The notes under the pieces: model-generated
Database searches by the model: none
What the model was told of the DNA's origin: nothing
The model's input: only the letters and a program-made list of their open reading frames with translations
Shown: positions 17,582 through 62,175 of the stretch, one piece after another
Numbering within the stretch: position 1 is the first letter of the stretch
Layout: each line of letters starts with the position of its first letter
NCBI GenBank assembly: GCA_947627355.1
Contig: CANQVX010000007.1
Span: forward strand, 14,952-78,951
Source of the DNA: an uncultured Bacilli bacterium
Lineage (GTDB): Bacteria > Bacillota_I > Bacilli_A > RFN20 > CAG-631
Direction: 5' to 3'
Length of the DNA: 64,000 nt
Program-made: the position numbers and the translations under genes

Positions 17582-17612
17582 TTGACACAGTCGGGGGGGG
17601 GTTAAACTAAGA
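17582..17612 (+). promoter_or_regulatory. candidate promoter with G9 homopolymer in the spacer (possible phase-variable switch)
   Basis: TTGACA 17582-17587, G9 17593-17601, TAAACT 17603-17608 (spacer 15 nt as it stands). Confidence 0.4.
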
Positions 17613-17633
17613 TTGAAAGTGAGAGTAGATATT

Positions 17634-18605: not shown

Positions 18606-18680
18606 ATCCTAGATTTACCAATTATTTCCATCAAGCATTGTTTTTAGATATTTGGGAAAAATGATGTTGAGGTGAAAGCA

Positions 18681-19346
18681 ATGAAAAGATTTTTAAGATG
18701 GTGTAAAGAAGCAAAGTTTGGATTAATACTAGGTGCTATAGCATTTGTATTTATATTAAGCATTTCTTTAATTGCTACCAATAATAAGAAAACAAATCAA
18801 GTGGCTAAACTTCCATCTTCATCAATAAATAGTTCTAGTACTGGAAATTCTTCTACTAGTTCTAGTAGTAGTTCTACTTATATAAATTCAATAGTTAAAG
18901 AAAAACTAATAAAACCATTTAAGGTTGACGCTACTATTTCTCGTTATTTCTTTGATGATGAAGATCCTATGGAAATAAAAAGCCAAGCAATTGTAACTTA
19001 TCAAAACAAAGTTTTACCAAGTCAAGGTGTTGATTACACCTATAATGATGAAGCTTTTGATGTAATGGCTGCTTTTAGTGGAAAAGTAATAGCTAAGAAA
19101 AATGATCCAATGTATGGACTTAGCATTGCAATTGAACATACTAGTGGTGTTGTAGCTTATTATTGTGGTCTTACTGAAGTAAATGTTATGCAAGATGAAA
19201 ACATCACTCAAAACACTATTTTAGGTAAGGCTGGAGAAAGCGTTATCAATGCTAAATTAGGTAAACATTTACACTTTGCAATTCAAGTAAATAATAATTA
19301 CATAAATCCATTAAAATCTTATGATAAATTAGTCGAAGATTTATAG
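18681..19346 (+). CDS. membrane-anchored M23/LytM-domain protein with degenerate first metal-binding motif (SpoIIQ-like)
   Basis: N-terminal TM, Ser-rich linker, C-terminal GKHLHFAIQ (HxH) motif but no His in the HxxxD position (YNDEAFD); GGTGA RBS before ATG 18681. Confidence 0.6.
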   Translation: MKRFLRWCKEAKFGLILGAIAFVFILSISLIATNNKKTNQVAKLPSSSINSSSTGNSSTSSSSSSTYINSIVKEKLIKPFKVDATISRYFFDDEDPMEIKSQAIVTYQNKVLPSQGVDYTYNDEAFDVMAAFSGKVIAKKNDPMYGLSIAIEHTSGVVAYYCGLTEVNVMQDENITQNTILGKAGESVINAKLGKHLHFAIQVNNNYINPLKSYDKLVEDL

Positions 19347-19373
19347 AAAAAAATGCACTTGTTGCATTTTTTT
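19347..19373 (+). terminator. rho-independent terminator
   Basis: A7-ATGCA-cttgt-TGCAT-T6. Confidence 0.6.
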
Positions 19374-19412
19374 GTTGCGGCCAATCCCTATGATTTTAGC
19401 CAATAAAAGTAT

Positions 19413-19441
19413 TTGACTAGAGGTGAATATTATTATATAAT
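19413..19441 (+). promoter_or_regulatory. consensus sigma-A promoter TTGACT-17-TATAAT
   Basis: -35 19413-19418, -10 19436-19441, RBS AAGGAG 19470-19475. Confidence 0.65.
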
Positions 19442-19483
19442 ATTTTCTAGAGAAATTATTTTTTTAGCAAAGGAGCATGAAAA

Positions 19484-20953
19484 ATGAATAATAAGTTAAA
19501 AAAAGTTTTAGCTAGTATTTTCGTCCTAACTCTAGTTGCTGCACCTTTATATGGTTGTGGCGGTGACAAGGCTTCTTCTTCAAGCAAGGTAGAAGAAAAT
19601 CCGGTAAAAGTTACATTAAATAGAAAAATGTACTTAATAGGCGAAAGTCTAGATGTACAAAAAGTTGAAGTATATCGTGAAGCTTTAGGCTTCTATAACA
19701 CAGTATCAAACTACACTGTTGCAAATGATGGTTGGAACCAATCAGCAGGTCATAAGAAAGTAACTATCAGTGCTGGTTCAGAAAAGGCTACTGTTGAAGT
19801 TGATGTTTATGAATCTGCAGCTGCTGCAGCTGAAGCAAATTCTATTTATGATGAAAATGGAGATATGAGCAAATACTTCGACGAAACAAAAGTAATTAAT
19901 CTTAATAGAAACACATTAAGAAAAGAAACAATCTTAGGTGAAGATAAAGACGGAGCCCCTCTTTTAAGATCATTTGTTGGAAGTAAGACTACTTCTTCAT
20001 TAAATAAAGAAGGCGCTGGTCCAGTTGATATTTGGACCGCTGATTCAAGCAATCCAAATCGTTCAATTTTACAATATGAATTACATCCAGAAATTCCAGG
20101 AAACGAAAGAGCTTTTACTACTCCACATACAAGAGTACATAAAGTTGATGTTCTTGATGACAAAGGTGAAAAAACCGGAGAAGAATCATGGAAATGGATG
20201 TTTGCTTCTTATGATGCAGCTCAATGGCGTACCGAAATGATTTTTGATAAAGATGGTAAAATTGCTTATATGGCATTTTGTATGCCAGATAACTCTTGGA
20301 CAGCAGCAGCTGGACATCCTCATACAACAAGATGGTATTCACATTCTGAATTTGCAGAAACAAAAGTAAAAAATCCAGCGCTTCTATTTGAAGAAGATGA
20401 AACAAACGTACAAACACTAGTTTCTAGAATGTATGAACCAGTTACATTTGATGTAACTCAAGAAGATTCTAATGGTTTTGCTGATAAATACTTCTATGAA
20501 AAGATCATCCCTGAAGGTGGTTTCTATATGATTTTAACTAACCAAGAAGCTAGCACAGTATGGCAATGGTGGACTGGTGATGAAACACAATCAATCGATG
20601 ATGATCATGCAGCTTCTATTTGTACACAAGCACAAAGAGATAAAGGTGCTGATGAATATCGTGGAATTTTAGATCCAGGAAGTAAGAGAGCAAACTTCTA
20701 TGCCCCATCTACTTTACAACAACAATATGCTTATTGGTATCTTGAAATCATTAAAGGTTCAGAAGAACATGCAACCGAATATGCAGAAGTAGCTGAAACA
20801 AGAAAAGAAATTTATAAATTATTAGTTGAAGCTGCTAACCCTGTAGTTGAAGAAGAACCTGTTTTAAAAGATTACTATGATACTACAGTTCAAGCTAAGA
20901 TTAAAACTTGGGCAAATGCAGTTCAAGATATTCAAGAAAGTTTAGCTGCTTAA
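19484..20953 (+). CDS. lipoprotein, function unknown
   Basis: signal peptide with lipobox LYGC; 489 aa. Confidence 0.6.
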   Translation: MNNKLKKVLASIFVLTLVAAPLYGCGGDKASSSSKVEENPVKVTLNRKMYLIGESLDVQKVEVYREALGFYNTVSNYTVANDGWNQSAGHKKVTISAGSEKATVEVDVYESAAAAAEANSIYDENGDMSKYFDETKVINLNRNTLRKETILGEDKDGAPLLRSFVGSKTTSSLNKEGAGPVDIWTADSSNPNRSILQYELHPEIPGNERAFTTPHTRVHKVDVLDDKGEKTGEESWKWMFASYDAAQWRTEMIFDKDGKIAYMAFCMPDNSWTAAAGHPHTTRWYSHSEFAETKVKNPALLFEEDETNVQTLVSRMYEPVTFDVTQEDSNGFADKYFYEKIIPEGGFYMILTNQEASTVWQWWTGDETQSIDDDHAASICTQAQRDKGADEYRGILDPGSKRANFYAPSTLQQQYAYWYLEIIKGSEEHATEYAEVAETRKEIYKLLVEAANPVVEEEPVLKDYYDTTVQAKIKTWANAVQDIQESLAA

Positions 20954-21617: not shown

Positions 21618-21648
21618 ATTATCGATTTTATCGACAAATTATAAAAAT

Positions 21649-33165: not shown

Positions 33166-33241
<76 letters not shown>

Positions 33242-33250
33242 TTAAAAAAA

Positions 33251-33327
33251 TGGCGGTCCAGACGGGAATCGAACCCGCGATCTCCTCCGTGACAGGGAGG
33301 CATGTTAAACCGCTACACCACTGGACC
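33251..33327 (-). tRNA. tRNA-Asp (GTC)
   Basis: anticodon loop CTGTCAC; CCA encoded. Confidence 0.9.
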
Positions 33328-33347
33328 GTAAGATATATATATTTAAA

Positions 33348-33424
<77 letters not shown>

Positions 33425-33439
33425 ATGTAAGTTTAATAA

Positions 33440-33530
33440 TGGCGGAGGAACTGGGATTCGAACCCAGGCGCCACTTTCGCGACCTACCGGTTTTCAAGAC
33501 CGGACCCTTCAACCACTTGGGTATTCCTCC
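33440..33530 (-). tRNA. tRNA-Ser (TGA)
   Basis: 91 nt with long variable arm; anticodon loop CTTGAAA. Confidence 0.9.
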
Positions 33531-33541
33531 AAATAATTAGT

Positions 33542-33616
33542 TGGTGGACCCTGTAGGACTCGAACCTACAACCAACCGGTTATGAGCCGGGAGCTCTGCC
33601 ATTGAGCTAAGGGTCC
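33542..33616 (-). tRNA. tRNA-Ile2 (CAT, lysidine-type) or elongator Met
   Basis: anticodon CAT; GGACCCTTAGCTCA... resembles Bacillus tRNA-Ile(CAU); position matches Ile in the B. subtilis trnB order. Confidence 0.75.
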
Positions 33617-33621
33617 ATAGC

Positions 33622-33699
33622 TGGTAGCGGCGGGGGGACTTGAACCCTCGACCTACCGGGTATGAGCCAGTTGCTCTAAACCATCTGAGCTACGCCGCC
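33622..33699 (-). tRNA. elongator tRNA-Met (CAT)
   Basis: GGCGGCGTAGCTCAG...CTCATACCCG...CGCCGCTACCA. Confidence 0.8.
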
Positions 33700-33707
33700 A
33701 AGTATAA

Positions 33708-33783
33708 TGGTGGAGCTGACGGGGATCGGACCCGCGACCTCCTGCTTGCAAGGCAGGCGCTCTCCCAACTGAGCTACAGCCCC
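33708..33783 (-). tRNA. tRNA-Ala (TGC)
   Basis: GGGGCTGTAGCTCAG with G3:U70, anticodon loop CTTGCAA. Confidence 0.9.
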
Positions 33784-47009: not shown

Positions 47010-47036
47010 AAAAATATCGAGTGAATCGATATTTTT
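47010..47036 (+). terminator. rho-independent terminator
   Basis: AAATATCGA-gtgaa-TCGATATTT + T-run. Confidence 0.7.
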
Positions 47037-47205
47037 AATACACAAATATTTAAAATTGTCGGTAAAATCGATATTTATAATAAAATAAATCAATTTAATT
47101 ATTTTTTAGTTTGATATTTACTTTGTTTTTCAAATTTACTAAAATGAAGTTGTAGGTCAAATAATAAATAATTCTTTTAAAATAATAGAATGTGAGGTGA
47201 CATAA

Positions 47206-50200
47206 ATGGAAGAAAACAATATTTTAGAAGGAATTGATTTAAGCAATGAAATTTTAAACAAAAGAACAAATAATTCTAAGTTCTACTTACAACCAGATGG
47301 TGCAGTTGTAATGATTTCTGATTTATGTGATGACGATATAATGTTAACAAGCACAAATTCAGACACAGAAATAACAAGTTTTGAATCAACCGGAACAACA
47401 GTTACATTACAAGAGCAAGAAGTAAAATTTGGAAAAGATAAAACAACTAATCAATTTTATAGAGCATATTTCCAATTTTATAATTATAGTTTTTTGAGTA
47501 AAGATGTCACTTCCGCAACATTAACTCTACACATTAACAATACAAAATATGCAACAGCTTTATATTATTCAATTTATCCTATTAAATCTAGAATTTTTGC
47601 TGGTGATAGACTACCAGAATATGATGAAAGCAGTCCTCTTGTAGAAAAGCAATATCCATCATCAGCAACATTAACATTAAATGTGCAAAAAATTATTGCA
47701 AATGATTATTGGGGAATAGTTATAAAGTCAAGTGAAGATAGTTCTGTACCTGGAACAGGAACATTTTATGGTTCAAAAAATTCATCTTCAAGTAATAGAC
47801 CGCAATTAATAGTCAAATATTATGATAGTATTTCTGTATCTAACAGCGAAAATGTAGGAACCATCACATTAAATGATAAAAGTTTTGCAAACATTAAGAA
47901 TATTAGCGGTTATAAAGAATTTAAACATTTATGTTTATCCCTTGGTGGAATTGATTTATATCATATCTATAATGATATTATCGGAAGATATTCATCTGTT
48001 AATAGTAAAAAAGCAACACAAGAATATCGTTTTGGTGTTGGTGCAAAATGTAATTTTCATATGAATCTATTTAATGAAAACAGATTAAATAATCAAATAA
48101 GTGATAGTACAATAACATTGATAGACGATAATGATAGTTATATGCCATTTAATAAAAAATATTATTATGTTAAAAATGGAAAAAGAATTTTTGTTAATGA
48201 AAACGAAATCAAAGAAAAGAATTTTAAATACATATATGTTGATAGTGATGGAATAGAATATGACATAACAATTTCATATTTTGATTTTTTAGGTCGAGAA
48301 ATACGTGTTGATAAATCAAAAGCTGCAATGTTTGAAGCGTTGGTAAATAATAAATACAATCTTACCTATTATGTAAAAGACATAAAAGGTAATGTTGTTG
48401 ATATTGAATATGATATTCAAACAAATACAGCCACATATAAAATGGCTCAATTAGAAGAATATAACGGAAATGTGTTTGTAGTAGATAATGATTTTATAAC
48501 AATTGAAAATGGAGTCAAAGTATATCATAAAAATGGTTTTAATATTAAAGTGCAAAACGATAGTTATTTACAAAAAGTATCAGTTATAAAACAAAACGAT
48601 AATCTTTATTTGCATTCAAACTATGTAATGTATGACATGTATGGGAATCCAACATGGGCAAGTTATAAGAAGCAAATATATGAAAAGATAAATATGAATG
48701 GTATTGATTTTTCAAATGTTAGCATACCAGAAGAATTATATTACCTAAGACAAGAATTGGATCAATTAGAAGAAACAAAAGAAAATATTCAAAAACAAAT
48801 CGAACAATACACAGAATATTTAACTTATAGTGATGCTAAAATAAAAGAAAAGATGTTGCAAATACAACAAGAACTACTTTTATATGAAATCAAAGATAAC
48901 ACAAATAAACAAATTGAAGAGAATGCAGATAATTTTATTAAAGTGTATGAATCAATGCCTGAAGATAAGCTTTGGCATATTCTTTGGCGGCAATCTGCAC
49001 AAGCTAAATATGAAGAATATGTTAGAAGAAACTTAACAATTGAATATCAAAATTTGCAATATTACTTAAATGAATTAAACATGTCTTCAATACCAAGAGA
49101 AGAAAATCATATCAAGAAAACAATAGAAGAATATGAAAGTGATTTAGATAATGTTGAAAAAGAAATAGAAAACACAAGAGCAAATATTATTGAATTAGTT
49201 GAACAAGAAAAGAGAAAACCAATTGATTGTTTATTATTAAATGGAACAGAAATATGGTTTGATTTTTTCGGTAAAATGGTACAAATCAAAAGAATTAAAC
49301 AGGAAATAAATATTAATTATGATAGAGATGATTATTTAATTAATATCACAAATCAAAACAATGAAAAATTATTTGATTTTGAATACGAAAATGGATTTGT
49401 AACAAAGATTACAGATGCAACTGGAAAATATGTAACACTAGAATATGATTCAAGTGATCGAATTCAACAAATAACTCATGATAACGGTGAATATGTAAAA
49501 TATGGATATTATGATTTTGGATTGCATAACGTTTATGATAACTGTGGAAGAAATTTAGCACTTGCTACAGGAAGTGTTGTCACATCATGTAGTTTTAATT
49601 CAAAAATAAGTGAAATAAATGATGAAGGCATTGTAACAGATACCCAAGAAATATTATATTATTATGAAACTATTGCAACAGCAAATAAGCATTGGAGAAT
49701 AATACGTGATGACAATGATATATATATTCATACATACGATAATTACTGTAATTTAGTAGGAGTTTTTGAATCAAACAATACAATTCCAAGTGAAAAAATA
49801 CAAGTAGGAAAAGAACCATCATATCGTTTTTATGGAACAGATAAAAAATATGATGTATATTTAAATTACAAGGCAAATCTTCTACAAAACGGAAGTTTCG
49901 AGGATGGTCTAAGTAATTGGATTTTAAGCAACTCAAATAATCAAATTACTAAAGATGCATATGTAGATGGTAGTAATGCAATAAATCTTTCATTAGGATA
50001 TATGTATCAAAATGTGCCAATTGAAAATGTAAAAGATTATAATTATTTAGTTTTTGGTGGTTATGCGTTAGCTAAATCAGCACCAGTTAGAATGAATCAA
50101 AGACAAATTGATGAATCATTAAACAATCAAATAAGTAGTGGTACAAAATTTGAATTAAGAGCACAACTAGAATACAATGATGGAAGCACAGAAGTATTTA

Positions 50201-53022
50201 ACACAACATTTGACTGGAAGATTACTGATTGGCAATTTGCGGCTGTTTTAATCAAAATAAACAAGCAAAAAACACTTTATAGATTTTGTGTTTATGTAGA
50301 TTTTAGTTCAAATACAGGTACTGCAATTTTTGATAATTTTGCACTTTGTGAAGCAAATGGTTCATATCAAGAAATAAACAGCGATGAAACTATAAATTAT
50401 AAAACCAATTTTGAAAGTGAAACATATTATAATAAATATGATGGATACAACCCAACCGAAAGCGTTTTTGTCGATAAAAACGGCTATAAATTAACAACAT
50501 ATTATACATATGATTTTTATAATCGCTTACTTCGTACAGAAACTAGTGAAGGAATAATAACAGCATATAAGTATGAAGAAAATGAAACGATACAAGAAAC
50601 ATATCATAAAGATGATCCAACAAACAAATTGATTCATCATGAAATTGTCGATGAAAACGGACGTTTACTAGAAGAGTTTGATAGCAAAGAAAATCAATCA
50701 ACCAAATATAATTATGTTAGTCCAATTAGTTCTTTGATTGATTTAATAGAAAATGGGGTTCAAAAAATCTATTATGGATATGATAATAGAACCGATGAAA
50801 TGGTAAGTCAAAGTCAAACAATTCATCAACAAGACGCCACATTAAGATATCATTACACAGATGGATTAGTAACAAGAATTGATAATGATTTTGATGTGAC
50901 AGTTAAATATGCATACGATAATAAAAAAAGATTGAAAAAAGCAATTGTTAATGAATTAATATTAGAAGATATTGAAACAAACGAAAATGTAACATTTACA
51001 ATCGATGGCAAACAATTTACAGGTGATGAAGTAAATACATTTTATGATTTGTTTTATGTAAGCAAAAAATATAATGATAAGAATCAAATTTTATCAGTTT
51101 CTGAGGGAAAGAAAAATTTTACACCTGTAGAAACAGTATTAACTTATAGTTACGATGAAAAAGATAGACTTGTAGCAATTAATGATAAAGTAAATGAAGA
51201 AAACAGTTATAGTTTTACATATAATAATAATGATTTATTAAGTGGTTTTGCTACAGATAAAGTGACTGGTTCAATCTTTTATAATACAAGGAACCAAATA
51301 TCTAAAGAGGTATATTCTTTTGATAATTCAGATAGTTTTAGTTATAGTTACGAATATGATGAAGCAAATCCATATCAATGTAATTATATATATACTCATT
51401 TAGATAAAAGTGCTAAAACAATCTTTAATTATGATTTACTATCTAGAGTAAAAAGTAAAGCAATCAATATATTAGATATGAATAGAACAATATATGAAGA
51501 ATACTATTCATATTGTAAAGATAATAACCAAACCAACATGCAAATAGCTAAGATAAATTATGTAGTCTATAATGCAATGGATGATTGTTTTGAATATAAA
51601 TATGATAGCAACCATAGAATTGTTGGAATAATGAAAAATGGTCTAGTTATAAACGAATACGAATATGATATTTTAAATAGATTAAGTGTTGAAAAAGATT
51701 ATAATAATCAAACAAAAATTAGATATCAATATGATATAGTAGGTAACATTTTAAAAAAATTCTATTATGATTTAAAGACAAATGAACTTGTTAAGACTGA
51801 TACATATACTTATACAAAAGGAACATTTGGTTTAAAATTATCAAAATTTAATGGAACAAATGTAAAAACATTTACACTAAATGATAAAAAACAATTGACA
51901 GAATATGATGGAACAACATTTACATATAATACTAGAGGATTAAGAATTAACAAAAATAATGCTAAGTATTATTATGATCATAACAATAGACTATTTAAAG
52001 AAGAAAATGGAACTAATACAATTTATTATTTCTATATCAACAATCAAGTTCAATATCTAAAAGTAAATGATACACAATACATATTAAGAAGAAACATATT
52101 CAATGATGTAACTCACATTTATAATTTTGAAGGTAAACTAGTAGCATATTATGAATATGATTCTTGGGGCAATCATAAAGTATACGACGAAACAGGAAAA
52201 GTTAATGAAAATGCCGATTTTATCGGAAATATTAATCCAATCAGATATCGTGGATATTACTATGATGTAGAAACCAAACTTTATTATTGTAATGCTAGAT
52301 ATTATAATCCTGAACATGGAAGATGGATAAGCGAAGATTCAATCGATTATTTGAATCTTGCCACTATTAACGGATTAAATTTCTATTCATATTGTAATAA
52401 CAACCCTATAATGTATGTTGATCCAAGTGGACATATTATAGGATTAATTATTGGATTACTTGCTGGTGCATTTATTGTAGGCTCTGCCACAAGTGCTATA
52501 AGCCAGGGTGTTACTTATGGTTGGGATAATATTGACATCTTGCAAGTTTTTACTGATGGATTATTTGCACTAGGTTCTACTGCATTAGCCATGACAGGAA
52601 TTGGTTCAATAGGATCTGCAATTATAGGAGCAGGAATGGGTTTTGCACAATATGCAATCGGCGCATCACGCCACGGAGAAGATATAACATTGCTTGGTTC
52701 ATTAACATCAATTGGTCTAGGTGCTATCGGTGGTGCTATAAGTGGTGCTGGTGCAAGAAACAATACAAGTATCATTAAAAATATGAAATTAACTGGTAGT
52801 GGAGCCAGCGCAGTTAAAGCAATTACAACTGCAACTAATAGATATTTCGCCGGAGAGATTTCAATGAGAGGTCTCCAAGCAACAACAAATCTATGGGGGA
52901 ATGCAGCATTAAATGCTGTACAAAACGCAATAGCACCTGCAATTGCTAGAGGAATGATTTGGGGAACTGGAAAAGTTCTACTTTGTACAATTGGTTCTAC
53001 AATACTAAATAATATATTCTAA
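47206..53022 (+). CDS. RHS/YD-repeat polymorphic toxin (1938 aa)
   Basis: many YD repeats (YEYD, RYQYDIVGN, YDxxxR), RHS core YYCNARYYNPEHGRWISEDSIDY ending DPSGH, then variable C-terminal domain; RBS GAGGTGA. Confidence 0.85.
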   Translation: MEENNILEGIDLSNEILNKRTNNSKFYLQPDGAVVMISDLCDDDIMLTSTNSDTEITSFESTGTTVTLQEQEVKFGKDKTTNQFYRAYFQFYNYSFLSKDVTSATLTLHINNTKYATALYYSIYPIKSRIFAGDRLPEYDESSPLVEKQYPSSATLTLNVQKIIANDYWGIVIKSSEDSSVPGTGTFYGSKNSSSSNRPQLIVKYYDSISVSNSENVGTITLNDKSFANIKNISGYKEFKHLCLSLGGIDLYHIYNDIIGRYSSVNSKKATQEYRFGVGAKCNFHMNLFNENRLNNQISDSTITLIDDNDSYMPFNKKYYYVKNGKRIFVNENEIKEKNFKYIYVDSDGIEYDITISYFDFLGREIRVDKSKAAMFEALVNNKYNLTYYVKDIKGNVVDIEYDIQTNTATYKMAQLEEYNGNVFVVDNDFITIENGVKVYHKNGFNIKVQNDSYLQKVSVIKQNDNLYLHSNYVMYDMYGNPTWASYKKQIYEKINMNGIDFSNVSIPEELYYLRQELDQLEETKENIQKQIEQYTEYLTYSDAKIKEKMLQIQQELLLYEIKDNTNKQIEENADNFIKVYESMPEDKLWHILWRQSAQAKYEEYVRRNLTIEYQNLQYYLNELNMSSIPREENHIKKTIEEYESDLDNVEKEIENTRANIIELVEQEKRKPIDCLLLNGTEIWFDFFGKMVQIKRIKQEININYDRDDYLINITNQNNEKLFDFEYENGFVTKITDATGKYVTLEYDSSDRIQQITHDNGEYVKYGYYDFGLHNVYDNCGRNLALATGSVVTSCSFNSKISEINDEGIVTDTQEILYYYETIATANKHWRIIRDDNDIYIHTYDNYCNLVGVFESNNTIPSEKIQVGKEPSYRFYGTDKKYDVYLNYKANLLQNGSFEDGLSNWILSNSNNQITKDAYVDGSNAINLSLGYMYQNVPIENVKDYNYLVFGGYALAKSAPVRMNQRQIDESLNNQISSGTKFELRAQLEYNDGSTEVFNTTFDWKITDWQFAAVLIKINKQKTLYRFCVYVDFSSNTGTAIFDNFALCEANGSYQEINSDETINYKTNFESETYYNKYDGYNPTESVFVDKNGYKLTTYYTYDFYNRLLRTETSEGIITAYKYEENETIQETYHKDDPTNKLIHHEIVDENGRLLEEFDSKENQSTKYNYVSPISSLIDLIENGVQKIYYGYDNRTDEMVSQSQTIHQQDATLRYHYTDGLVTRIDNDFDVTVKYAYDNKKRLKKAIVNELILEDIETNENVTFTIDGKQFTGDEVNTFYDLFYVSKKYNDKNQILSVSEGKKNFTPVETVLTYSYDEKDRLVAINDKVNEENSYSFTYNNNDLLSGFATDKVTGSIFYNTRNQISKEVYSFDNSDSFSYSYEYDEANPYQCNYIYTHLDKSAKTIFNYDLLSRVKSKAINILDMNRTIYEEYYSYCKDNNQTNMQIAKINYVVYNAMDDCFEYKYDSNHRIVGIMKNGLVINEYEYDILNRLSVEKDYNNQTKIRYQYDIVGNILKKFYYDLKTNELVKTDTYTYTKGTFGLKLSKFNGTNVKTFTLNDKKQLTEYDGTTFTYNTRGLRINKNNAKYYYDHNNRLFKEENGTNTIYYFYINNQVQYLKVNDTQYILRRNIFNDVTHIYNFEGKLVAYYEYDSWGNHKVYDETGKVNENADFIGNINPIRYRGYYYDVETKLYYCNARYYNPEHGRWISEDSIDYLNLATINGLNFYSYCNNNPIMYVDPSGHIIGLIIGLLAGAFIVGSATSAISQGVTYGWDNIDILQVFTDGLFALGSTALAMTGIGSIGSAIIGAGMGFAQYAIGASRHGEDITLLGSLTSIGLGAIGGAISGAGARNNTSIIKNMKLTGSGASAVKAITTATNRYFAGEISMRGLQATTNLWGNAALNAVQNAIAPAIARGMIWGTGKVLLCTIGSTILNNIF
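52435..53022 (+). other. C-terminal toxin domain of RHS protein: Gly/Ala-rich glycine-zipper hydrophobic domain (predicted membrane-inserting)
   Basis: about 195 aa after DPSGH: repeated GxxxG/AxxxG (IIGLIIGLLAGAFIVG, GIGSIGSAIIGAGMG, GLGAIGGAISGAG). Confidence 0.55.
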
Positions 53023-53048
53023 ACACTTTTTAAGGAGGCATAGTTACT

Positions 53049-53444
53049 ATGAAAAGTACAGACATTATTGATTTTTATCTTATACAACTAGTTATATTAA
53101 TGTTATGCTTCTCAAATTTGATACTAGGAGGATCCTCTGATAAATATTTATCTGATTATACATTAAAAAAACTATCAGTTCCCAAAAAATCATTTTTAAG
53201 GAAACTAGTAATATTTAAAGAAAATAGATTTACAGTTCCTGATTCATTCTTATATATAAGAGTAATACCATACTTAATAGAATGGTTGTTTATTATTATA
53301 GGTACAATATTGATATTAATTAATCAATTTGTAGTTTACTTTATTCCAAGTTCTGCTTTTCTTATTTTTGGTTATTGTAATTTAGGTTTATATTTTGCTT
53401 ATGAAATATTATTAATGTTTTTAGGATATGGCATCCATTATTAA
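53049..53444 (+). CDS. candidate immunity protein (small multi-TM protein) for the RHS C-terminal toxin
   Basis: 131 aa, 3-4 TM helices, 26 nt downstream of toxin stop with RBS AAGGAGG. Confidence 0.5.
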   Translation: MKSTDIIDFYLIQLVILMLCFSNLILGGSSDKYLSDYTLKKLSVPKKSFLRKLVIFKENRFTVPDSFLYIRVIPYLIEWLFIIIGTILILINQFVVYFIPSSAFLIFGYCNLGLYFAYEILLMFLGYGIHY

Positions 53445-53460
53445 ATCTTTATAAATACAA

Positions 53461-53511
53461 AAAGTGAAATCAAATATGAGTAATTAGTTTCATATTAATT
53501 GATTTCACTTT
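53461..53511. terminator. nested-hairpin bidirectional terminator
   Basis: perfect 13-bp arms AAAGTGAAATCAA / TTGATTTCACTTT enclosing a second 6-bp stem ATATGA/TCATAT. Confidence 0.55.
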
Positions 53512-53515
53512 TAAT

Positions 53516-53974
53516 TTATTTAATGTATTTTATTTGGTAGTGCTTGCACCATTCTATAGCTATTTCTTCATATTTCATTTCTTGAAACTTATACCATTTA
53601 TCAATGATATGGTTATAGATACAAATGTTTTTAAATCTTCTAAAGGCACCTTTACCTTTAATTGCTATAAATAATTTACTTGCTAGATTTTTATCTTTTA
53701 TGGTATCTATAAATTCTCCCATCATATGATAAGGATTTATATCATATCTGGTTGGTAAACAAATATAATTATTGGCATCATCTAATATATCAGAATGTGA
53801 ATCAGCCATTTCATTTGTATATATTAACTTATAGGTATCAGGATCTAAATAATATGTAAAATACATATCACCAGCAACAATTGATATAGCATCTATTATG
53901 TCTGATAATTTTAATTCTTTCATAATGTTTTCCATTCTTACTTTTACAAATCTATTATAACTTTTAATAAACAA
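53516..53974 (-). CDS. hypothetical cytoplasmic protein (possible orphan immunity/accessory protein)
   Basis: 152 aa, no TM, convergent on RHS locus. Confidence 0.4.
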   Translation of the reverse strand: MFIKSYNRFVKVRMENIMKELKLSDIIDAISIVAGDMYFTYYLDPDTYKLIYTNEMADSHSDILDDANNYICLPTRYDINPYHMMGEFIDTIKDKNLASKLFIAIKGKGAFRRFKNICIYNHIIDKWYKFQEMKYEEIAIEWCKHYQIKYIK

Positions 53975-54030
53975 TTAGTAAATATTTTGCATTTTATAAT
54001 TATTTTTACTATAATTTTGTTGGTGAAAAT

Positions 54031-55362: not shown

Positions 55363-55398
55363 ATAAATTGTCGGTCAAATCGGATAAAACTAGTTGGT

Positions 55399-55427
55399 GT
55401 TCATCTATTTTAAGATGAACATTTTTT
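55399..55427 (+). terminator. rho-independent terminator after rlmD
   Basis: GTTCATCT-attta-AGATGAAC + T6. Confidence 0.7.
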
Positions 55428-55488
55428 ATTTATGATGCCACTATATAGTTTTAAAAAAGTATCAAAAAAATATTATTTGTGTTTCATT

Positions 55489-55518
55489 TGATTGATATTA
55501 TCGATTAAATGCTATAAA
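55489..55518 (+). promoter_or_regulatory. promoter of defence operon (TTGATT-18-TGcTATAAA extended -10)
   Basis: read directly; followed by tandem GTAAAAGAC GTAAAAAAC at 55521-55538 and RBS AAAGGAGA. Confidence 0.45.
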
Positions 55519-55553
55519 ATGTAAAAGACGTAAAAAACGCAAAGGAGAAACAT

Positions 55554-55754
55554 ATGACATTAGTAGAACAATTACTCTATGTTAGAGTGCAATTAAATTT
55601 GACTCAAATGGAATTAGCAAAAAAATTGAATGTTTCTTTTGCTACCATTTCAAGATGGGAAAATAATAAAGCAAAACCAACAAAAAAAGCTTTATTAACA
55701 TTTAAGAATTTTTGTAAGAAAAATAATATAGTTTTTGATTGTGAGGACTTATAA
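55554..55754 (+). CDS. XRE-family HTH protein, likely R-M controller (C) protein
   Basis: 66 aa; LNLTQMELAKKLNVSFATISRWEN helix-turn-helix; first gene of overlapping operon containing a DNA MTase. Confidence 0.65.
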   Translation: MTLVEQLLYVRVQLNLTQMELAKKLNVSFATISRWENNKAKPTKKALLTFKNFCKKNNIVFDCEDL

Positions 55755-55755
55755 T

Positions 55756-56277
55756 ATGAAGAAATATGAATGTATGATGAATCATAAAGAATTACTCTTA
55801 ACTTTTGAAAAAACGTTGGTTTCTTCTGGTATTTTAATTAATAGTATTGAAAAGTGTGAAGATAGTATAAAAAATTTTTATCAAGTAAAAATAATTTTCA
55901 AAAACAAACAACTAAATTTGTTTGTTGATTTAAGAAATATTAGTTCGGCATATTTGCCAAACAAACCATATATTTTAAGAAGGCAAGTAGGAAAATTAGA
56001 GTTCGACGCTATACCAATTAACGATGAAAATAGTTTATCCATGCTAATTGGTATTACTTGTATTGATGATAAAATTATTTTAGTATGTTGGAATCCTTTT
56101 TATTTTATAGGACATAGCACAAATCGTTCGTGTTACGTTTTAGAAAGCAGTTTAGAAGAAGCAAAACAATTTGGATTATATGATGGTAATGATTGTAGAA
56201 CACCTGTTTTAGTTTGCCTAGATTCTTGTTTTGACAAAATGTTAGATATTTATGTGGAAAGAAATGTGGTGGATTAA
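55756..56277 (+). CDS. hypothetical 173-aa protein, candidate small type II restriction endonuclease (PD...DxK-like arrangement FDAIP...IDDK)
   Basis: position between C protein and MTase; GTGAGGA RBS; no family recognised by eye. Confidence 0.35.
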   Translation: MKKYECMMNHKELLLTFEKTLVSSGILINSIEKCEDSIKNFYQVKIIFKNKQLNLFVDLRNISSAYLPNKPYILRRQVGKLEFDAIPINDENSLSMLIGITCIDDKIILVCWNPFYFIGHSTNRSCYVLESSLEEAKQFGLYDGNDCRTPVLVCLDSCFDKMLDIYVERNVVD

Positions 56278-56278
56278 C

Positions 56279-57502
56279 ATGGGCGTTTTAAAGAAAAATT
56301 TTACATATATAGATTTGTTTGCTGGAATTGGTGGATTTAGACTTGCAATGGAAAATTATTCTAGTAAGTCCAAATGTTTATTTGCATCTGAAATTGATGA
56401 GGCTGCTGTAAAGACATATGAGTTGAATTTTGGTCAAAAGCCTTTAGGAGATATTAGAAAAATTAATCCCAAAGATTTAAATATTCCAGCACCCGATGTT
56501 ATATGTGGTGGTTTTCCTTGTCAAACTTTTTCGAAAGGTGGAAATCAAGCCGGGTTTAAAGATTCAAGAGGAACTTTGTTTAGGGAGATCATTAGAATAA
56601 TAGAATCTTATGATTTTAACGAAAGACCTAAAATATTAATTTTAGAAAATGTTCAAAATTTAATTAATCATGATAAAGGAAACACTTGGAAAACAATACA
56701 TTATGAAATTACTAATGTAGGATATAATGTTATTGAAAAACCGTTAGTTGTATCTCCTAAAGATGTTGGTGTACCACAATTAAGAAATCGAGCCATTATT
56801 TTAGCTGTAAGGAAAGATATTTATGATGGTCCTATTGATTTAAAAATTGAAAAGAAAAGAGTTAATTGTTCTAAAATAATAGATATTATTGATAAAGATA
56901 TTGATGATAATTTATTAAAAACTCATTCTTTATCGGATGAACAAATTGAAATTTTAGATTGTTGGGATGAGTTTCTTAATATTATTCCGCAAAAAGAAAG
57001 AGTTATCGGTTTTCCAATTTGGAGCGATGAGTTTGGGAAAAAATATCCATTAGGTGGTTTGCCAGAATGGAAACAAAGAATCATTTTAAAAAACAGGGAA
57101 TTGTATTTAAAGCATAAATCAGAAATTGATTTGTGGTTAAAAAAATGGAATGTAAGAAAAACACTTACACCAACAAATAGAAAATTTGAGTGGCAAGCCG
57201 GAATTAGTATGGATAGTGTATATGATGGTATTATTCAATTTAGGACAAGTGGCGTTAGAGTTAAAAAACCAACAGAGAGCCCTGCTCTTGTTGCCATGGA
57301 TCATAGACCAATATATGGTCCGGAAAAAAGATATATCGTTCCAGTTGAGGGATTAAGATTACAAAGTTTTCCGGATAATTATCAATTTAACGAAAATGAA
57401 AAACAAATATTTAAACAATTGGGTAATGCCGTAAATGTTAAAGTTATTGAGTGTATGTTTAGATTATTTGTTGAATATATCGACGAGAAACGAGGAAAGT
57501 AG
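56279..57502 (+). CDS. dcm: DNA (cytosine-5)-methyltransferase
   Basis: motif I FAGIGGF, motif IV GGFPCQTFS, motif VI LILENVQNL, motif VIII QLRNR; ATG 56279 two nt after upstream TAA. Confidence 0.9.
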   Translation: MGVLKKNFTYIDLFAGIGGFRLAMENYSSKSKCLFASEIDEAAVKTYELNFGQKPLGDIRKINPKDLNIPAPDVICGGFPCQTFSKGGNQAGFKDSRGTLFREIIRIIESYDFNERPKILILENVQNLINHDKGNTWKTIHYEITNVGYNVIEKPLVVSPKDVGVPQLRNRAIILAVRKDIYDGPIDLKIEKKRVNCSKIIDIIDKDIDDNLLKTHSLSDEQIEILDCWDEFLNIIPQKERVIGFPIWSDEFGKKYPLGGLPEWKQRIILKNRELYLKHKSEIDLWLKKWNVRKTLTPTNRKFEWQAGISMDSVYDGIIQFRTSGVRVKKPTESPALVAMDHRPIYGPEKRYIVPVEGLRLQSFPDNYQFNENEKQIFKQLGNAVNVKVIECMFRLFVEYIDEKRGK

Positions 57503-57503
57503 T

Positions 57504-59012
57504 ATGGAAGAAAAAAATTTTGATGTAACTGTGGGATCTGGAATTATTTCAATATTTCAAAGACAAAACTTTAGATTAGAAAGGGTGTTTTCTGAGTTTA
57601 TTGATAATTCCCTACAAAGTTTTTTAGATCATCAAGACGTTTTAAAAAAACTTGCTGATGGTGAAAAGTGTAAGGTTTCAATTTTTTGGGATGGAAATAA
57701 AATAGTTATCAAAGACAACGCGTTTGGCATGAATGAAGAAGAGTTCGGTCGAGCGTTAAAATTAAAGGCAACAAACCCTGATGCATTAAAAAACGATCAA
57801 TTGAGTGTATATGGTATGGGATTAAAATATGCTTCGGTATATTTGGGAAATCATTACAGTATATCTTCCACAGCATATAATTCTGATATTCGTTATTTTG
57901 CAGAAATTGATGTACCAAAATTTGAAACAAATAACCCTACATCTGTTCCTGCAAAATTAAATAGCGAAAATCCAGAAGTTCATGAAACAGTCGTTACTAT
58001 TACTGATTTAAGAATAAAAAGAACACCAGCCAAAGAAAACGATTTGCGCGAAAAATTAGGTACAATTTATAACCATTATATGCACAGCGGAACTCTATCA
58101 ATTTTTTTAAACAATATTCCTGTAGTATATCACCTGCCTGAATTGAGACCTAATGAAAATGGTGGAAGGTATTATAGTAATTTTAACGATTCGTTTACTA
58201 TTAATGGTAAAACATATAATTTTTCTGGATGGATTGGAATATTAAATAAAGGTAATCAAAGTATAACAGGATTGAATTTAATTCAAGCTAATAGGTGTAT
58301 AGAATTAGGATATAAGCCAGAAAAATTATTTGGAAAAGGAAACTCATTTCAAAATTCAAGAGTTGTTGGAGAAGTTGTTTTTAATGGTGATAATTATGTT
58401 CTTTCATTTAATAAAGATAAATTTGTTTGGGCTGATGATGGAGCGGAAGACGCTTTTATCAATAAATTAAAAAGCAATTCTGATGTTGCATGTATTATTA
58501 AAACTTCAAAAAAAATATCTTTTACAGACGATGAAGAAAAAGCAAAAGAAAAAACATCTAAATCATTTACTAAAAGTTCCGTTATTTCTGTTATAAATGA
58601 ACCGAAAGTAGATAGTACACTAATTTTAAATACAGATGATAGTACATCTACTGATACAACTAATCAACCAACAACTATTACTGCACCGGTTACAACTAAT
58701 AAATATATTAAGTTTCAAATTGTAGTGGAGGATAAAAATGTTCCACTATATGTTGATACATGGCAAGGATCTAAAACTGATGACTGGATTATATTCGAAA
58801 AATATGAAGATGGTTATTTACTTCGTGTTAATTATGAAAACGAGTTTATTTGTAATAAATTTAGTACTCAAAAATCGAAAGTTGCTTCAAACACAATAGC
58901 TATTGTAATAGTGACTAGCATGTTAATGTCACAAAATCTTGGGGTGAAATTAACAGATTCCAAAACACTATTGAAGACTATAAACAAAATTATGGGTGAA
59001 AAAAATGAATAA
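57504..59012 (+). CDS. GHKL-superfamily (MORC/MutL-like HATPase_c) ATPase
   Basis: N-box EFIDNS, G1 box KDNAFGMN, G2 box YGMGLKYAS; ATG 57504 one nt after MTase stop. Confidence 0.7.
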   Translation: MEEKNFDVTVGSGIISIFQRQNFRLERVFSEFIDNSLQSFLDHQDVLKKLADGEKCKVSIFWDGNKIVIKDNAFGMNEEEFGRALKLKATNPDALKNDQLSVYGMGLKYASVYLGNHYSISSTAYNSDIRYFAEIDVPKFETNNPTSVPAKLNSENPEVHETVVTITDLRIKRTPAKENDLREKLGTIYNHYMHSGTLSIFLNNIPVVYHLPELRPNENGGRYYSNFNDSFTINGKTYNFSGWIGILNKGNQSITGLNLIQANRCIELGYKPEKLFGKGNSFQNSRVVGEVVFNGDNYVLSFNKDKFVWADDGAEDAFINKLKSNSDVACIIKTSKKISFTDDEEKAKEKTSKSFTKSSVISVINEPKVDSTLILNTDDSTSTDTTNQPTTITAPVTTNKYIKFQIVVEDKNVPLYVDTWQGSKTDDWIIFEKYEDGYLLRVNYENEFICNKFSTQKSKVASNTIAIVIVTSMLMSQNLGVKLTDSKTLLKTINKIMGEKNE

Positions 59013-61191
59013 ACTCACGATAACGGAAGTTATAAACAATAACTCAACTGATACTATTAAAAATCCAACTTTTAGTGGTTATCATATTACAAAGTTTAAA
59101 GAAAATCTTGAACAAGAAGAAAGTTCAGAAACAGTTGGACATATTCTTTCTAACGCCTATCAATCAATCAATTATTTTAAAAATCCTAATAATGTTTCCG
59201 ATGAACAAAATCCGATGAAAATATTATGTTTAGGTAAAGTTCAAAGTGGTAAAACATCATTCTTTTTAGCAACGACAGCGTTGGCTTTTGACAATGGATA
59301 TGATATTGCATATATTTTAGGTGGCACAAAATTAAAACTAAAGGAACAAAATTTAGGAAGAATTATTAAATCTTTTAAAAATAATGAAAAAATAAAAATT
59401 TTTGATGTTAATAATTTGTTTAACGAAAATATACCTTCTTTAATAAAAGCCGGTTATAAAATTATTTTGGTTATCTTGAAAAATGCTGCAGAAAAGACAA
59501 ATTTAGGAAAATTAAAAAAATTTTCTGAAATATATTATTCTATTCCTGCTGTAATAATCGATGATGAAGGCGATGAATACACTCCGGGAGCAGAAAAACA
59601 AAAGAAAAAGAATTCGAGAGCCGGCAAAACACATGATAAAATTGTAGATATCATCACATCGTTTAAAATATGTACTTTTTTATCTGTAACAGCTACGCCT
59701 CAAGCTAATTTATTGGTTTCAACTTATGATGGTATATCGCCAAATAGATTAGTCCTTGTAAAACCTGGAAAAGGTTATACTGGAGGCAGAGAATTTTTTG
59801 ACACAAAAGATAATCCTCATGTTTCTATCATTGATGATACAGACGATTTTGTTGATTCGATACCTAGTTCATTTAAAGAAGCACTATATTTCTTTATATT
59901 TGCCTGTTCGATGAAACGCTCGAAGGGAGATAAAGAACCATTTTCAATGTTAGTACATCCATCATCTTTTCATGCAGTTCAAGAAGTTGTTGCAAGTAGG
60001 ATAAAAAATTTTATAAATAATTCGTTGAATCCAATTATTTTGAATAAAAGGTCTATTGAATTTGATGATTTAGTTAATGAAATTGAAAATGTTTTTATGC
60101 AATATAAAAAGATATATGGACAAAATGACATTGAATTTGAAAAAGTAATTAACGAATTGCCTGGCGTTGTTGAAAATCTTATGATTCAAATAATTAACTA
60201 TGCAAGTTCCGATGATGGAGATGAAAAAAAAGACACTCCTAAATACAAAATTAAAGTCGGAGGCAATATGCTAGGAAGAGGGCTTACTATTGATAGATTA
60301 ATAGTTTCATATATCTATAGGGATTCTAAAGAAGCACAAGTAGACACAATGTATCAAAGATGTAGATGGTTTGGTTATAAAGCAAATTACTTTGATGTAT
60401 GCAAAGTTTTTATGACCGCAGAACTACAAGATAAATTTATGGCAATTGTTTCAAATGAAGATCATATGTGGAATTCAATGGAGGCTTTCTTAAATACACA
60501 AATTGATTTAAAAAAATTTAAAAGAATATTTTTGCTCGAAAATGATAAATTAGTTTTAACTCGAAAAAGTGTTTCGAATACTATAACGCTTAAAGTTATT
60601 TCTTCAGGAAATAAAGCAGATGAAAGCATATATTTAAATAAGGAAGAAATGGAACATAATCGAAAAATTTACATAGAATATTGTAAAAATAATAAACATA
60701 ATGGCGAACTAGTTGATTTTGATAATTCCAAGGAACACAATCAAAGACATCTATTAATTAAAGAAAGTTTTATAAATTTTTATAATGTATTTTTATCTAA
60801 AATTATTTTTGGTTATGGTAGTCCATTTAGTGCGCAACTTTTTCAAGTTATGGTAGATAAAATAAAACGTGGCGAACAAGAAGATGATATCTTAATTATG
60901 TTAATGAGATATGGTAATGGGGAATACCGTTCTCCAAGCGATAGTACAATGATGAATATTTCTAGATTGTTTCAAGGTAGAAATGATGGCACAAAATTTA
61001 CGGGAGATAGGTATCCAACAGATATAAATGGAGTTGATTATAGTAAAATTCCTTTTATACAAATTCATATGGTGGATATTTATAACAAAGAACCAAATAT
61101 TAACGAATCAATTCCTTTAATTTCTTACAACAGTCCATTAACATCAGAAGTAATTAAAATGGTAACGGGAGATAATGTTTATGAAGAATGA
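59005..61191 (+). CDS. Z1-domain SF2 helicase-like ATPase (DEAD-Z1 motor)
   Basis: Walker A GKVQSGKTS, Walker B IIDDEGDE, motif III SVTATPQAN; overlaps upstream stop. Confidence 0.75.
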   Translation: MNKLTITEVINNNSTDTIKNPTFSGYHITKFKENLEQEESSETVGHILSNAYQSINYFKNPNNVSDEQNPMKILCLGKVQSGKTSFFLATTALAFDNGYDIAYILGGTKLKLKEQNLGRIIKSFKNNEKIKIFDVNNLFNENIPSLIKAGYKIILVILKNAAEKTNLGKLKKFSEIYYSIPAVIIDDEGDEYTPGAEKQKKKNSRAGKTHDKIVDIITSFKICTFLSVTATPQANLLVSTYDGISPNRLVLVKPGKGYTGGREFFDTKDNPHVSIIDDTDDFVDSIPSSFKEALYFFIFACSMKRSKGDKEPFSMLVHPSSFHAVQEVVASRIKNFINNSLNPIILNKRSIEFDDLVNEIENVFMQYKKIYGQNDIEFEKVINELPGVVENLMIQIINYASSDDGDEKKDTPKYKIKVGGNMLGRGLTIDRLIVSYIYRDSKEAQVDTMYQRCRWFGYKANYFDVCKVFMTAELQDKFMAIVSNEDHMWNSMEAFLNTQIDLKKFKRIFLLENDKLVLTRKSVSNTITLKVISSGNKADESIYLNKEEMEHNRKIYIEYCKNNKHNGELVDFDNSKEHNQRHLLIKESFINFYNVFLSKIIFGYGSPFSAQLFQVMVDKIKRGEQEDDILIMLMRYGNGEYRSPSDSTMMNISRLFQGRNDGTKFTGDRYPTDINGVDYSKIPFIQIHMVDIYNKEPNINESIPLISYNSPLTSEVIKMVTGDNVYEE

Positions 61192-62113
61192 ATTTAAATA
61201 TGTTTCTGATATTAGTAACGAAACATTTGAAACAAATGTTGTTTTACCTTTTTTAAATGAAGAAGGAAGACCATGTATTTTAATAAAAAACAGTAAAAAC
61301 AAAGAAAATATCGTTGAGGGTTCGACCGACAATTTAGAATATCATCTAAATTCTTTGTTTATAAAAGATGAAAAAAGATATTATTTTCATATGATTTCGT
61401 GTTTGAAATCAGATGGTTATTCTAAAGAACAATTTAATATAGCTTATGAATATCTTTTTAAAACTATGGATTCTCCTAAAAGTGATACTGAGATAGGTTC
61501 GCTTATTAATTCTTTAGAACAACTTTTCAAAGTAACACCCGAAAAAGATAATTTTAAATTGCTTCTAGGAGTTTATGGTGAGTTGTTATTTGTTTTATTC
61601 GCGCACAATTGTGGATGTAATGAAATCTTAACTAAATATCATCCAAATTTCTTTTCAAAACATGATTTTGAAATAGATAGATATAATAGAATTGAAGTTA
61701 AAAGTACTGTTGATTCTAAAAGAATACATCACTTTTCACATGATCAAATTTTTCGAGAAGATGTTAACGTTTATGTGGTTTCTATAATTCTTGAAGAGTC
61801 TTCAGAAGGTGTGTCTTTGAATGAATTATTTGAAAAAGTATTAGAATTTTCTTTTGATCCTAAAACAACTTTATGGTTGGGACAATTGAAAGGATTTTGC
61901 GGAGTGTCCAAAGAAAACCCTGGGCCATCTTTTTCTTATGAAAAAGCATTGCAAGATTTAAAAATATTTAACGCAACAGATTTGCCACATTTAAAATTAG
62001 AAGGAATAAATGGAATAACTAACGTTTCATACAACGTTGATTGTTCTATGAGTGATAATTTAGACACTGCTGTGTTTATTAATAAAATAAATAAAATTAT
62101 TGAAAATAAATAG
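61181..62113 (+). CDS. PD-(D/E)xK motif nuclease-like protein
   Basis: KHDFEIDRYNRIEVKST (D...ExK); start overlaps Z1 stop; typical partner of Z1/GHKL genes. Confidence 0.6.
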   Translation: MKNEFKYVSDISNETFETNVVLPFLNEEGRPCILIKNSKNKENIVEGSTDNLEYHLNSLFIKDEKRYYFHMISCLKSDGYSKEQFNIAYEYLFKTMDSPKSDTEIGSLINSLEQLFKVTPEKDNFKLLLGVYGELLFVLFAHNCGCNEILTKYHPNFFSKHDFEIDRYNRIEVKSTVDSKRIHHFSHDQIFREDVNVYVVSIILEESSEGVSLNELFEKVLEFSFDPKTTLWLGQLKGFCGVSKENPGPSFSYEKALQDLKIFNATDLPHLKLEGINGITNVSYNVDCSMSDNLDTAVFINKINKIIENK

Positions 62114-62175
62114 TAAAAAATTAAATAATTACAGACAATTATCAATAAACTTGATTAGAAAAATTTAATAAATAA

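Follow-up and report, generated by a model that had tools for sequence, protein, structure and literature searches.

A highly probable RHS toxin/immunity module, with a putative membrane-inserting C-terminal domain, on a strain-variable island of an uncultured Bacilli bacterium

RHS toxin/immunity modules are well understood in outline. The 149-aa C-terminal domain (CT) of Tse5 of Pseudomonas aeruginosa combines transmembrane (TM) and amphipathic helices and forms cation-selective pores, the Tse5 shell prevents self-intoxication from the cytoplasm, and the immunity protein Tsi5 is a membrane protein with two TM segments (PMC9637101, PMC10684867, PMC12744356). The catalytic aspartates of Tse5 are D1141 and D1164, and its cleavage takes place between L1168 and I1169 (PMC10684867). 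The locus described here, an RHS gene followed by a small gene for a candidate immunity protein, lies in a stretch of 64,000 nucleotides from an uncultured Bacilli bacterium (contig CANQVX010000007.1), hereafter called the window. We have little doubt that it is an RHS toxin/immunity module, and as such the locus itself is unsurprising. Its CT is, by analogy with known toxins, probably a pore-forming or depolarising toxin. The whole reading that we favour, an RHS toxin with a cognate immunity gene on a 6.9-kb island of uncultured low-GC gut Bacilli and a CT that would insert into membranes, seems reasonably likely to us. What is new is a CT family of 233 cluster representatives that has the look of a Gram-positive counterpart of Tse5-CT, together with a family of immunity proteins of ~130 aa with three predicted TM segments.

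Judged by analogy, the closest characterised system is Tse5 (RhsP1)-CT/Tsi5, and the likeness is functional and architectural. In both proteins an RHS shell is combined with an aspartyl-protease core in which two Asp positions are conserved, the cores being homologous (8cp6, E 6.5e-9), and in both the cleavage site precedes a hydrophobic, Ile-rich CT, between DPxGL and I in Tse5 and, as predicted, between DPSGH and I here. Neither CT looks enzymatic: each consists of TM-like and amphipathic helices, over 149 aa in Tse5 and 195 aa here, and each is followed directly 3' by a gene for a small integral-membrane immunity protein, with two TM segments in Tsi5 and three in the present candidate. There are differences as well. 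When all PDB chain sequences were searched with a CT profile at E<=10, only irrelevant matches came up and no similarity to the CT of Tse5, whose chain is possibly outside that set. Tse5 is a type VI secretion system (T6SS) effector from a Gram-negative bacterium and has an N-terminus of the PAAR type and a DUF6531 plug, whereas the RHS protein of the window belongs to Gram-positive-type Bacilli, is without PAAR, DUF6531 and signal peptide, and has instead a DNRLRE-like domain, a putative coiled-coil segment and an insert resembling a carbohydrate-binding module (CBM).

Among Gram-positive systems, the WapA proteins (B. subtilis WapA; S. suis WapA-CT1, PMC12704120) resemble the locus in several ways: they are RHS proteins whose CT is polymorphic, an immunity gene lies downstream, orphan cassettes occur (here in relatives), and the N-terminal domain is of the DNRLRE type (sub-threshold here). 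They carry a Sec signal peptide and LysM wall-binding domains, and in S. suis genes of the SecF-like and SrtB kinds are linked to them as well (PMC12704120), whereas signal peptide, LysM domain, SecF-like and SrtB genes are all absent from the RHS protein and its window. The WapA CTs that have been named (CT1, CT2 and that of B. subtilis WapA) are nucleases or tRNases and not membrane toxins (PMC12704120). The WapA-type class was rejected for the missing Sec signal peptide. The nearest Firmicute analogues, compared by description, are TspA, EsxX and TelE, type VIIb secretion system (T7SSb) toxins whose C-terminal domains bear extended glycine zippers and depolarise membranes (PMC12744356). They too are Firmicute antibacterial toxins with glycine zippers at the C-terminus, but they are LXG proteins with WXG100-like partners by essC, whereas the scaffold here is RHS. 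Polytopic immunity proteins are known for depolarising and channel-forming toxins (PMC12744356). A T7SSb substrate class was rejected because the RHS protein has no LXG or WXG match in Pfam, its upstream neighbour is a cwlJ-like gene and no essC-like gene occurs in the 64 kb. LrhA of Listeria monocytogenes (PMC10327511) is likewise a Bacillota RHS toxin with predicted T7SSb rather than Sec export and a membrane-anchored candidate immunity protein downstream; it differs by its DUF6531 domain and by its neighbours, essC8 and a set of three small genes of the WXG100-like type; the locus here has none of these. The ionophoric CdiA-CT/CdiI pairs of contact-dependent inhibition (PMC11630599) are comparable in their polymorphic CTs, which are helical and ionophoric and have a putative glycine zipper; they are delivered by the CdiA filament of a type V secretion system in Enterobacteria, and no sequence similarity was detected. 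The class of T6SS Rhs effectors was rejected because PAAR, a VgrG-binding N-terminus and DUF6531 are all absent from the Pfam matches, also for sub-segments at E<=10, and the genome is of the Firmicute type (PolC). The TcB-TcC class of Tc (ABC) toxins was rejected because Pfam finds no SpvB/TcdB mid domain; TcdB2-TccC3 chains match the RHS core region only.

The original prediction had described a 1938-aa RHS protein and, 26 nt downstream, a multi-TM open reading frame (ORF) of 131 aa with its own ribosome-binding site (RBS). Both ORFs stand exactly where it had placed them (Table 1), the gap occupies 53023-53048, an AAGGAGG precedes the second ORF, and hydropathy and an AlphaFold2 (AF2) model agree on its TM helices. 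An in-frame TAA lies directly 5' of the RHS ATG, so that an N-terminal extension of the protein is impossible. The nested hairpin claimed after the small ORF is also there: its folding energy (dG) is -21.3 kcal/mol (z -6.0), none of 200 shuffles folds as well, and it is likely a bidirectional terminator. A G+C-based terminator scan did not flag it, having missed both AT-rich hairpins, which were hence assessed by folding. The claimed promoter of the locus fared differently: it is not demonstrable, because promoter-like matches are no commoner than in shuffled sequence (61 sigma-70-like matches against 69.8 expected), a promoter scan being uninformative in such AT-rich DNA.

The assignment of the large protein to the RHS family rests on two models above their cut-offs, Pfam RHS_repeat (29.8 bits against 22) and TIGR03696 for the core (aa 1651-1743, E 2.5e-21, 75.9 bits against 32.5), so that the HMMER check which had been proposed for the claim gave a positive answer for both. 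The repeats are divergent, with matches at aa 728-762 and ~1309-1327 and eight strict YxYD-type motifs, and the shell shows homology to other RHS proteins, over aa ~720-1745, and to the Rhs chains 8h8a and 8qja of the PDB. The protein does contain the motif that the original prediction had quoted, YYCNARYYNPEHGRWISEDSIDY...DPSGH, with DPSGH at aa 1739-1743, the C-terminal end of the core; this end (NNPIMYVDPSGH) fits the pattern PxxxxDPxG(L/H). Similarity of the core region extends to solved chains of Rhs, Tc and teneurin proteins, Tse5 among them. Furthermore, D1711 and D1739 align with two Asp positions of the Vibrio Rhs chain 8h8a (8h8b has Ala at the second) and, through this alignment, correspond to the catalytic aspartates of Tse5. 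By homology, the cleavage would fall between H1743 and I1744. The CBM-like insert at aa ~890-1050 is shared with three other carriers of the CT (P0147, P0153, L002) and weakly resembles NTTRR-F1. The N-terminal part is less well defined as a module: local BLAST against the CT carriers gives weak matches at best, the match to NF033679 at aa 69-203 spans positions 16-163 of the 164 of the profile but stays below its cut-off (E 2.3e-6, 27.8 bits against 34), and the segment at aa ~505-690, probably a coiled coil from its composition, has weak matches to coiled-coil-type families and to no others.

The CT that follows DPSGH directly has no Pfam or NCBIfam match even at E<=10. It is rich in Gly, Ala and Ile (33, 29 and 27 per 200 residues) and reaches 2.27 in 19-residue hydropathy windows. 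Its AF2 model, built on a 40-sequence alignment, has seven helices and no strands. Helices 1-4 (1742-1771, 1778-1796, 1802-1822 and 1829-1848) have the length of TM segments, 19-30 aa, and a mean Eisenberg hydrophobicity of 0.45-0.63, and the later ones are more polar and amphipathic. A CT profile searched against 1.84 billion cluster representatives retrieved the 233 family members at E<=1e-3, 37 of them at E<=1e-30. The match is C-terminal in all the long and mid-size carriers, many of the short matches are fragments, and RHS repeats were found in all ten mid-size carriers that were scanned. When the family was thinned to 67 members with less than 70% identity, conservation was highest at Gly or small residues that recur at i, i+4 spacing in the hydrophobic helices. 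These include the zippers G1839-x3-G1843-x3-G1847-x-G1849 and G1808-x3-G1812, in which each position is Gly in 61-100% of the members (G1839 81%, G1843 97%, G1847 89%, G1849 100%), and positions 1755, 1759 and 1763 hold small residues in 87-98%. Conserved polar residues are few (Q1767, W1773, Q1780, D1784, N1852). Conservation of this kind is characteristic of a membrane helix bundle with glycine zippers and not of an enzyme. The family, for which neither Pfam nor NCBIfam has a model, appears to be restricted to RHS scaffolds in gut Firmicutes. A foreign origin of the CT, considered for its GC content of 0.39-0.40, was rejected, as its GC3 of 0.17 is like that of the rest of the genome; the excess sits at the second codon position (GC2 0.53) and is due to Gly and Ala codons.

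The same features could be read in another way, which we hold to be possible but unlikely. The locus would still encode an RHS toxin and its immunity protein, and the CT would make no pore: it would block a membrane step (lipid II, the handling of cell-wall precursors, a transporter), or its hydrophobic half would be a translocation or entry module for an effector part at aa ~1853-1938. The CT is indeed bipartite, a hydrophobic half (1744-1850) being followed by a more polar, amphipathic one, and the five conserved polar residues could be functional and not structural. Glycine zippers can, going by the title of one paper (PMC10240207), serve translocation and not pore formation. Against this stand the absence of any enzymatic family or catalytic-type motif in either half of the CT in the Pfam, NCBIfam and PDB-sequence searches, the concentration of the conservation in the Gly and small residues of the hydrophobic helices, and the candidate immunity protein itself, which is predicted to be embedded in the membrane, as is typical of the partners of channel-forming toxins (PMC12744356).

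The 131-aa protein belongs to a family of 104 clusters of ~130-aa proteins, mostly 50-58% identical and none of them annotated. Its AF2 model (pLDDT 73.8) places TM helices at 3-26, 69-94 and 101-130, and Foldseek found no similar fold for it in the PDB (best E 9). The loop between the first two helices (27-68) is the most conserved part of the sequence, with invariant S48, L50-V54, F56, K57, F67-Y69 and R71; it holds 9 K+R against 4 D+E and is therefore predicted, under the positive-inside rule, to face the cytoplasm.

The pairing of this protein with the CT recurs in independent genomes. On three unrelated contigs (L079, L080, L081), CT homologues of 62-66% identity occur in orphan core+CT cassettes, each with a homologue of the 131-aa protein directly behind it (52-54% identity, 130-137 aa, at -1 to +17 nt from the CT ORF). 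An hmmsearch found an ORF of the immunity family downstream of all four strong CT matches. On L080, a second CT variant, 48% identical, is followed by a correspondingly divergent member of that family (E 4.5e-8), and the remote CT variants of L029, L072 and L037 are followed by other small multi-TM ORFs, with three TM segments in L029 and L072. The orphan CT ORFs are short and start inside the Rhs core (for example MYYCNSRYY...DPGGH). Their cassettes stand in arrays of different core+CT/small-ORF pairs; the array of L079 lies 3' of a full-length RHS gene that has a different CT of its own and its own downstream ORF. The closest CT relatives (62-73% identity) are such orphan cassettes, beside RHS bodies only ~31% identical to that of the window, and in full-length carriers the CT is 29-49% identical where the shell is 24-33% identical. 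The partner is thus conserved while the cassettes move, and therefore mobility and partner fidelity are as for polymorphic toxin/immunity systems. The arrangement of toxin CT and immunity gene that had been proposed for the locus hence shows all its hallmarks at the level of sequence. The expected swapping of CT and immunity genes was borne out in part: variable pairing is clear at the level of the family, whereas the same-species contigs L091-L093 and P0302 carry the same CT, with no swapping at the locus.

The arrays extend over 1548-12800 of L079, 3967-9210 of L080 and 2-9166 of L081. Several of their other CTs are hydrophobic and rich in Gly and Ala, as at 9307-9825 of L079 and 5695-6351 of L080, which suggests, from composition, that membrane-active CTs may be common in Bacilli RHS loci of this kind.

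The mechanism that we infer for the favoured reading, a membrane-inserting toxin with its cognate immunity protein, would be as follows. The RHS repeats (aa ~700-1650) would fold into a closed shell around the 195-aa CT, and the aspartyl protease of the core (D1711, D1739) would cut after DPSGH(1743). Following export and contact with a neighbour cell, the CT would be released and would enter the cytoplasmic membrane of the target by its four hydrophobic helices. The glycine zippers would let CT copies oligomerise into an ion-conducting pore, thereby provoking the collapse of the membrane potential. In the producer, the co-transcribed 131-aa protein, with its three TM helices and its basic cytoplasmic loop, would sit in the membrane and block the insertion or the assembly of the CT.

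Several observations weigh against this reading. The profile search of PDB sequences detected no similarity of the CT to characterised pore-formers, and the low confidence of the CT model (pLDDT 44.6) rules out a comparison of folds. An N-terminal DUF6531 plug is missing from the Pfam matches, even when sub-segments were searched at E<=10. No hydrophobic segment that could be a Sec signal peptide precedes aa 1735 in the hydropathy profile, and T7SS, essC-like, sortase and SecF-like genes are all absent from the 64-kb window. Finally, among the same-species RHS copies, which fall in the same 90% cluster as the RHS protein of the window, one is split by a frameshift at ~aa 1336 (P0303/P0304) and another has lost 20 aa of the CT in frame (P0305; ITTATNRYFAGEISMRGLQA, aa 1873-1892); these copies may reflect inactivation and decay, or assembly errors.

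With no signal peptide in the protein and no secretion genes in the window, the RHS protein does not fit the known Gram-positive models of export. A T7SSb or a lysis-type release system may exist elsewhere in the genome. The same facts, together with the split and deleted copies, which come from metagenome contigs, and with the absence of any orphan core+CT cassette or array from the window, are what one would expect of an undeployed or decaying remnant, an intact RHS gene that is not exported and has no present role in competition, whose small ORF would be kept against the toxins of relatives. We consider this improbable: the 5.8-kb ORF has remained intact at a GC content of 26% and is served by good RBSs and a terminator, P0302 and L092 carry near-identical copies that are likewise intact, and most of the full-length CT carriers are also without a signal peptide, which points to a shared alternative export route and not to decay. 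Indeed, a signal-peptide-like N-terminus was seen in 2 of the 22 family matches longer than 1000 aa (20 of the 22 being CT carriers), all these calls being based on hydropathy only.

How do cocoons of 200 kDa leave a Gram-positive cell? The leaderless majority of the full-length carriers raises this question, and the CT family could make it testable. One would then be tempted to see in the locus a member of a large and unrecognised class of leaderless RHS toxins of gut Bacilli and Clostridia, using a route beyond Sec/WapA, T7SSb/LXG, T6SS and Tc, with divergent N-terminal modules (here the DNRLRE-like domain, the coiled coil and the CBM-like insert) that would direct export or delivery into target cells and, as payload, a new RHS-restricted family of glycine-zipper pore-formers with its new family of three-TM immunity proteins; we offer this as a speculation that is rather unlikely to hold in full. 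That the hydrophobic C-terminus would simply be the membrane anchor of a surface RHS protein, with the 131-aa protein as membrane partner or chaperone and no toxin at all, agrees with the mostly TM-like helices of the CT and with the surface-protein-type DNRLRE-like domain, but is most improbable given that the first residue of the CT directly follows the autoproteolytic DPxGH site, which is where RHS toxins start, that it recurs in promoterless-looking orphan core+CT cassettes among unrelated CT/small-ORF pairs, which would be senseless for an anchor, and that no N-terminal signal would put the body outside the cell.

Table 1. Features of the RHS locus and of its island, in positions of the window
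Feature	Position	Strand	Remarks
Strain-variable island	47040..53979		RHS gene, immunity gene, hairpin and UPF0158 gene; between cwlJ-like gene and rlmD
18-nt motif AAATTGTCGGTAAAATCG with TTGTCGG	47053..47070	+	lies 14 nt in from the left island edge
RBS GAGGTG of the RHS gene	47194..47199	+	6 nt before the start codon; read from sequence
RHS polymorphic toxin gene (highly probable)	47206..53022	+	1938 aa; ORF, family matches
DNRLRE/CBM96-like domain, sub-threshold	47410..47814	+	aa 69-203; NCBIfam NF033679
E/K/Q/L-rich segment	48718..49275	+	aa ~505-690; composition
YD/RHS-repeat shell	49306..52155	+	aa ~701-1650; with CBM-like insert aa ~890-1050
Rhs-associated core / putative aspartyl autoprotease plug	52156..52434	+	aa 1651-1743; TIGR03696
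C-terminal domain (putative toxin)	52435..53019	+	aa 1744-1938; four hydrophobic helices, then amphipathic helices
RBS AAGGAGG of the candidate immunity gene	53032..53038	+	read from sequence
Candidate immunity gene	53049..53444	+	131 aa; three predicted TM helices
Long AT-rich nested hairpin	53451..53519		between the convergent immunity and UPF0158 genes
UPF0158-family gene	53516..53923	-	135 aa from ATG, 152 aa from upstream TTG; Pfam PF03682, E 1e-8

The island is present or absent at one and the same site. Two contigs of a related lineage (L089, L090), whose rlmD falls within the same 90%-identity protein cluster as that of the window, keep the order PNP-NERD-HMA-SpoU-cwlJ-rlmD, with ~200 bp from cwlJ to rlmD and no more than ~120 bp of unrelated spacer. 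The blastn homology of the window to these contigs (75-85%) stops at 47036-47039 and resumes at 53980. L089 comes from a metagenome-assembled genome annotated as an uncultured Bacilli bacterium (Lapin-005 bin75). The insertion between cwlJ and rlmD that the original prediction had proposed was therefore right as to its place, with breakpoints at ~47037 and 53980, but not as to its extent, as the block also holds the minus-strand UPF0158 gene, which, like the membrane-toxin look of the CT and the missing signal peptide, it had not remarked upon. Four same-species ENA contigs (L078, L091-L093) have the island at ~99.7-100% identity, and the filled and empty cwlJ-rlmD sites make a clean natural presence/absence pair. 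The RHS protein is found with identical sequence on ENA and NCBI contigs, proteins of the window also occur on an NCBI contig of 87,436 bp, and the surrounding DNA is a Firmicute-type chromosome (PolC, F-type ATPase, GatAB, a tRNA cluster). In more distant relatives (L082-L084), most of the flanking genes have 69-82% aa identity and other genes occupy the cwlJ-rlmD slot, which is therefore a recurrent site of gene-content variation. These are a kinase-like gene (282-293 aa) and/or a gene for a lipoprotein of ~247 aa, on the minus strand (L082 8234-9869, L083 503-1237, L084 8241-9866); the lipoprotein resembles, by eye, an N-acetylmuramoyl-L-alanine amidase.

L078 and L091-L093 have the UPF0158 gene together with the RHS gene, and the empty sites lack it. 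It stands beside no other RHS locus collected here, and the idea that it regularly accompanies RHS genes was rejected for this reason; its role could be that of an orphan immunity gene or of an accessory gene. Tblastn searches of plasmids and of phages and a search of IMG/VR contigs gave no CT match, and no plasmid or phage vehicle is evident.

A copy of the TTGTCGG motif had been predicted 5' of the locus, and it is found at 47056-47062. This heptamer occurs 9 times in the window against 1.9 expected. The 18-nt motif that contains it (AAATTGTCGGTNAAATCG) has two exact copies, at 47053-47070 and at 55365-55382, the latter at the left edge of a second island; if <=2 mismatches are allowed, the count is 5 where 0.02 would be expected, one of these matches being at 21623-21640 on the minus strand with 2 mismatches. 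Both exact copies lie 0-17 nt from the left breakpoint of an island, just 3' of the stop codon of the preceding gene, and the motif is absent from both empty sites. Its role could lie in integration or in regulation. Direct or inverted repeats that would pair left and right ends were found at neither island, so that no integration mechanism can be named.

The second strain-variable island (55368-62169) follows rlmD directly. Its genes encode HTH_3, MTaX1, a DNA cytosine methylase, HATPase_c_3, a Z1 domain protein and DUF4420 (PD-(D/E)XK family), and the island has the appearance of a restriction or defence cassette linked to a methylase. In L091-L093, 90 bp stand in its place, and rlmD is directly followed by a Mac-type acetyltransferase gene. 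Elsewhere in the window, three ORFs without Pfam match (189, 330 and 489 aa; 16987-20953) flank an M23 peptidase gene 3' of the ATP synthase operon, and seven tRNA genes (Phe, Asp, Met, Ser, Met, Met, Ala) are found at 33166-33783 on the minus strand.

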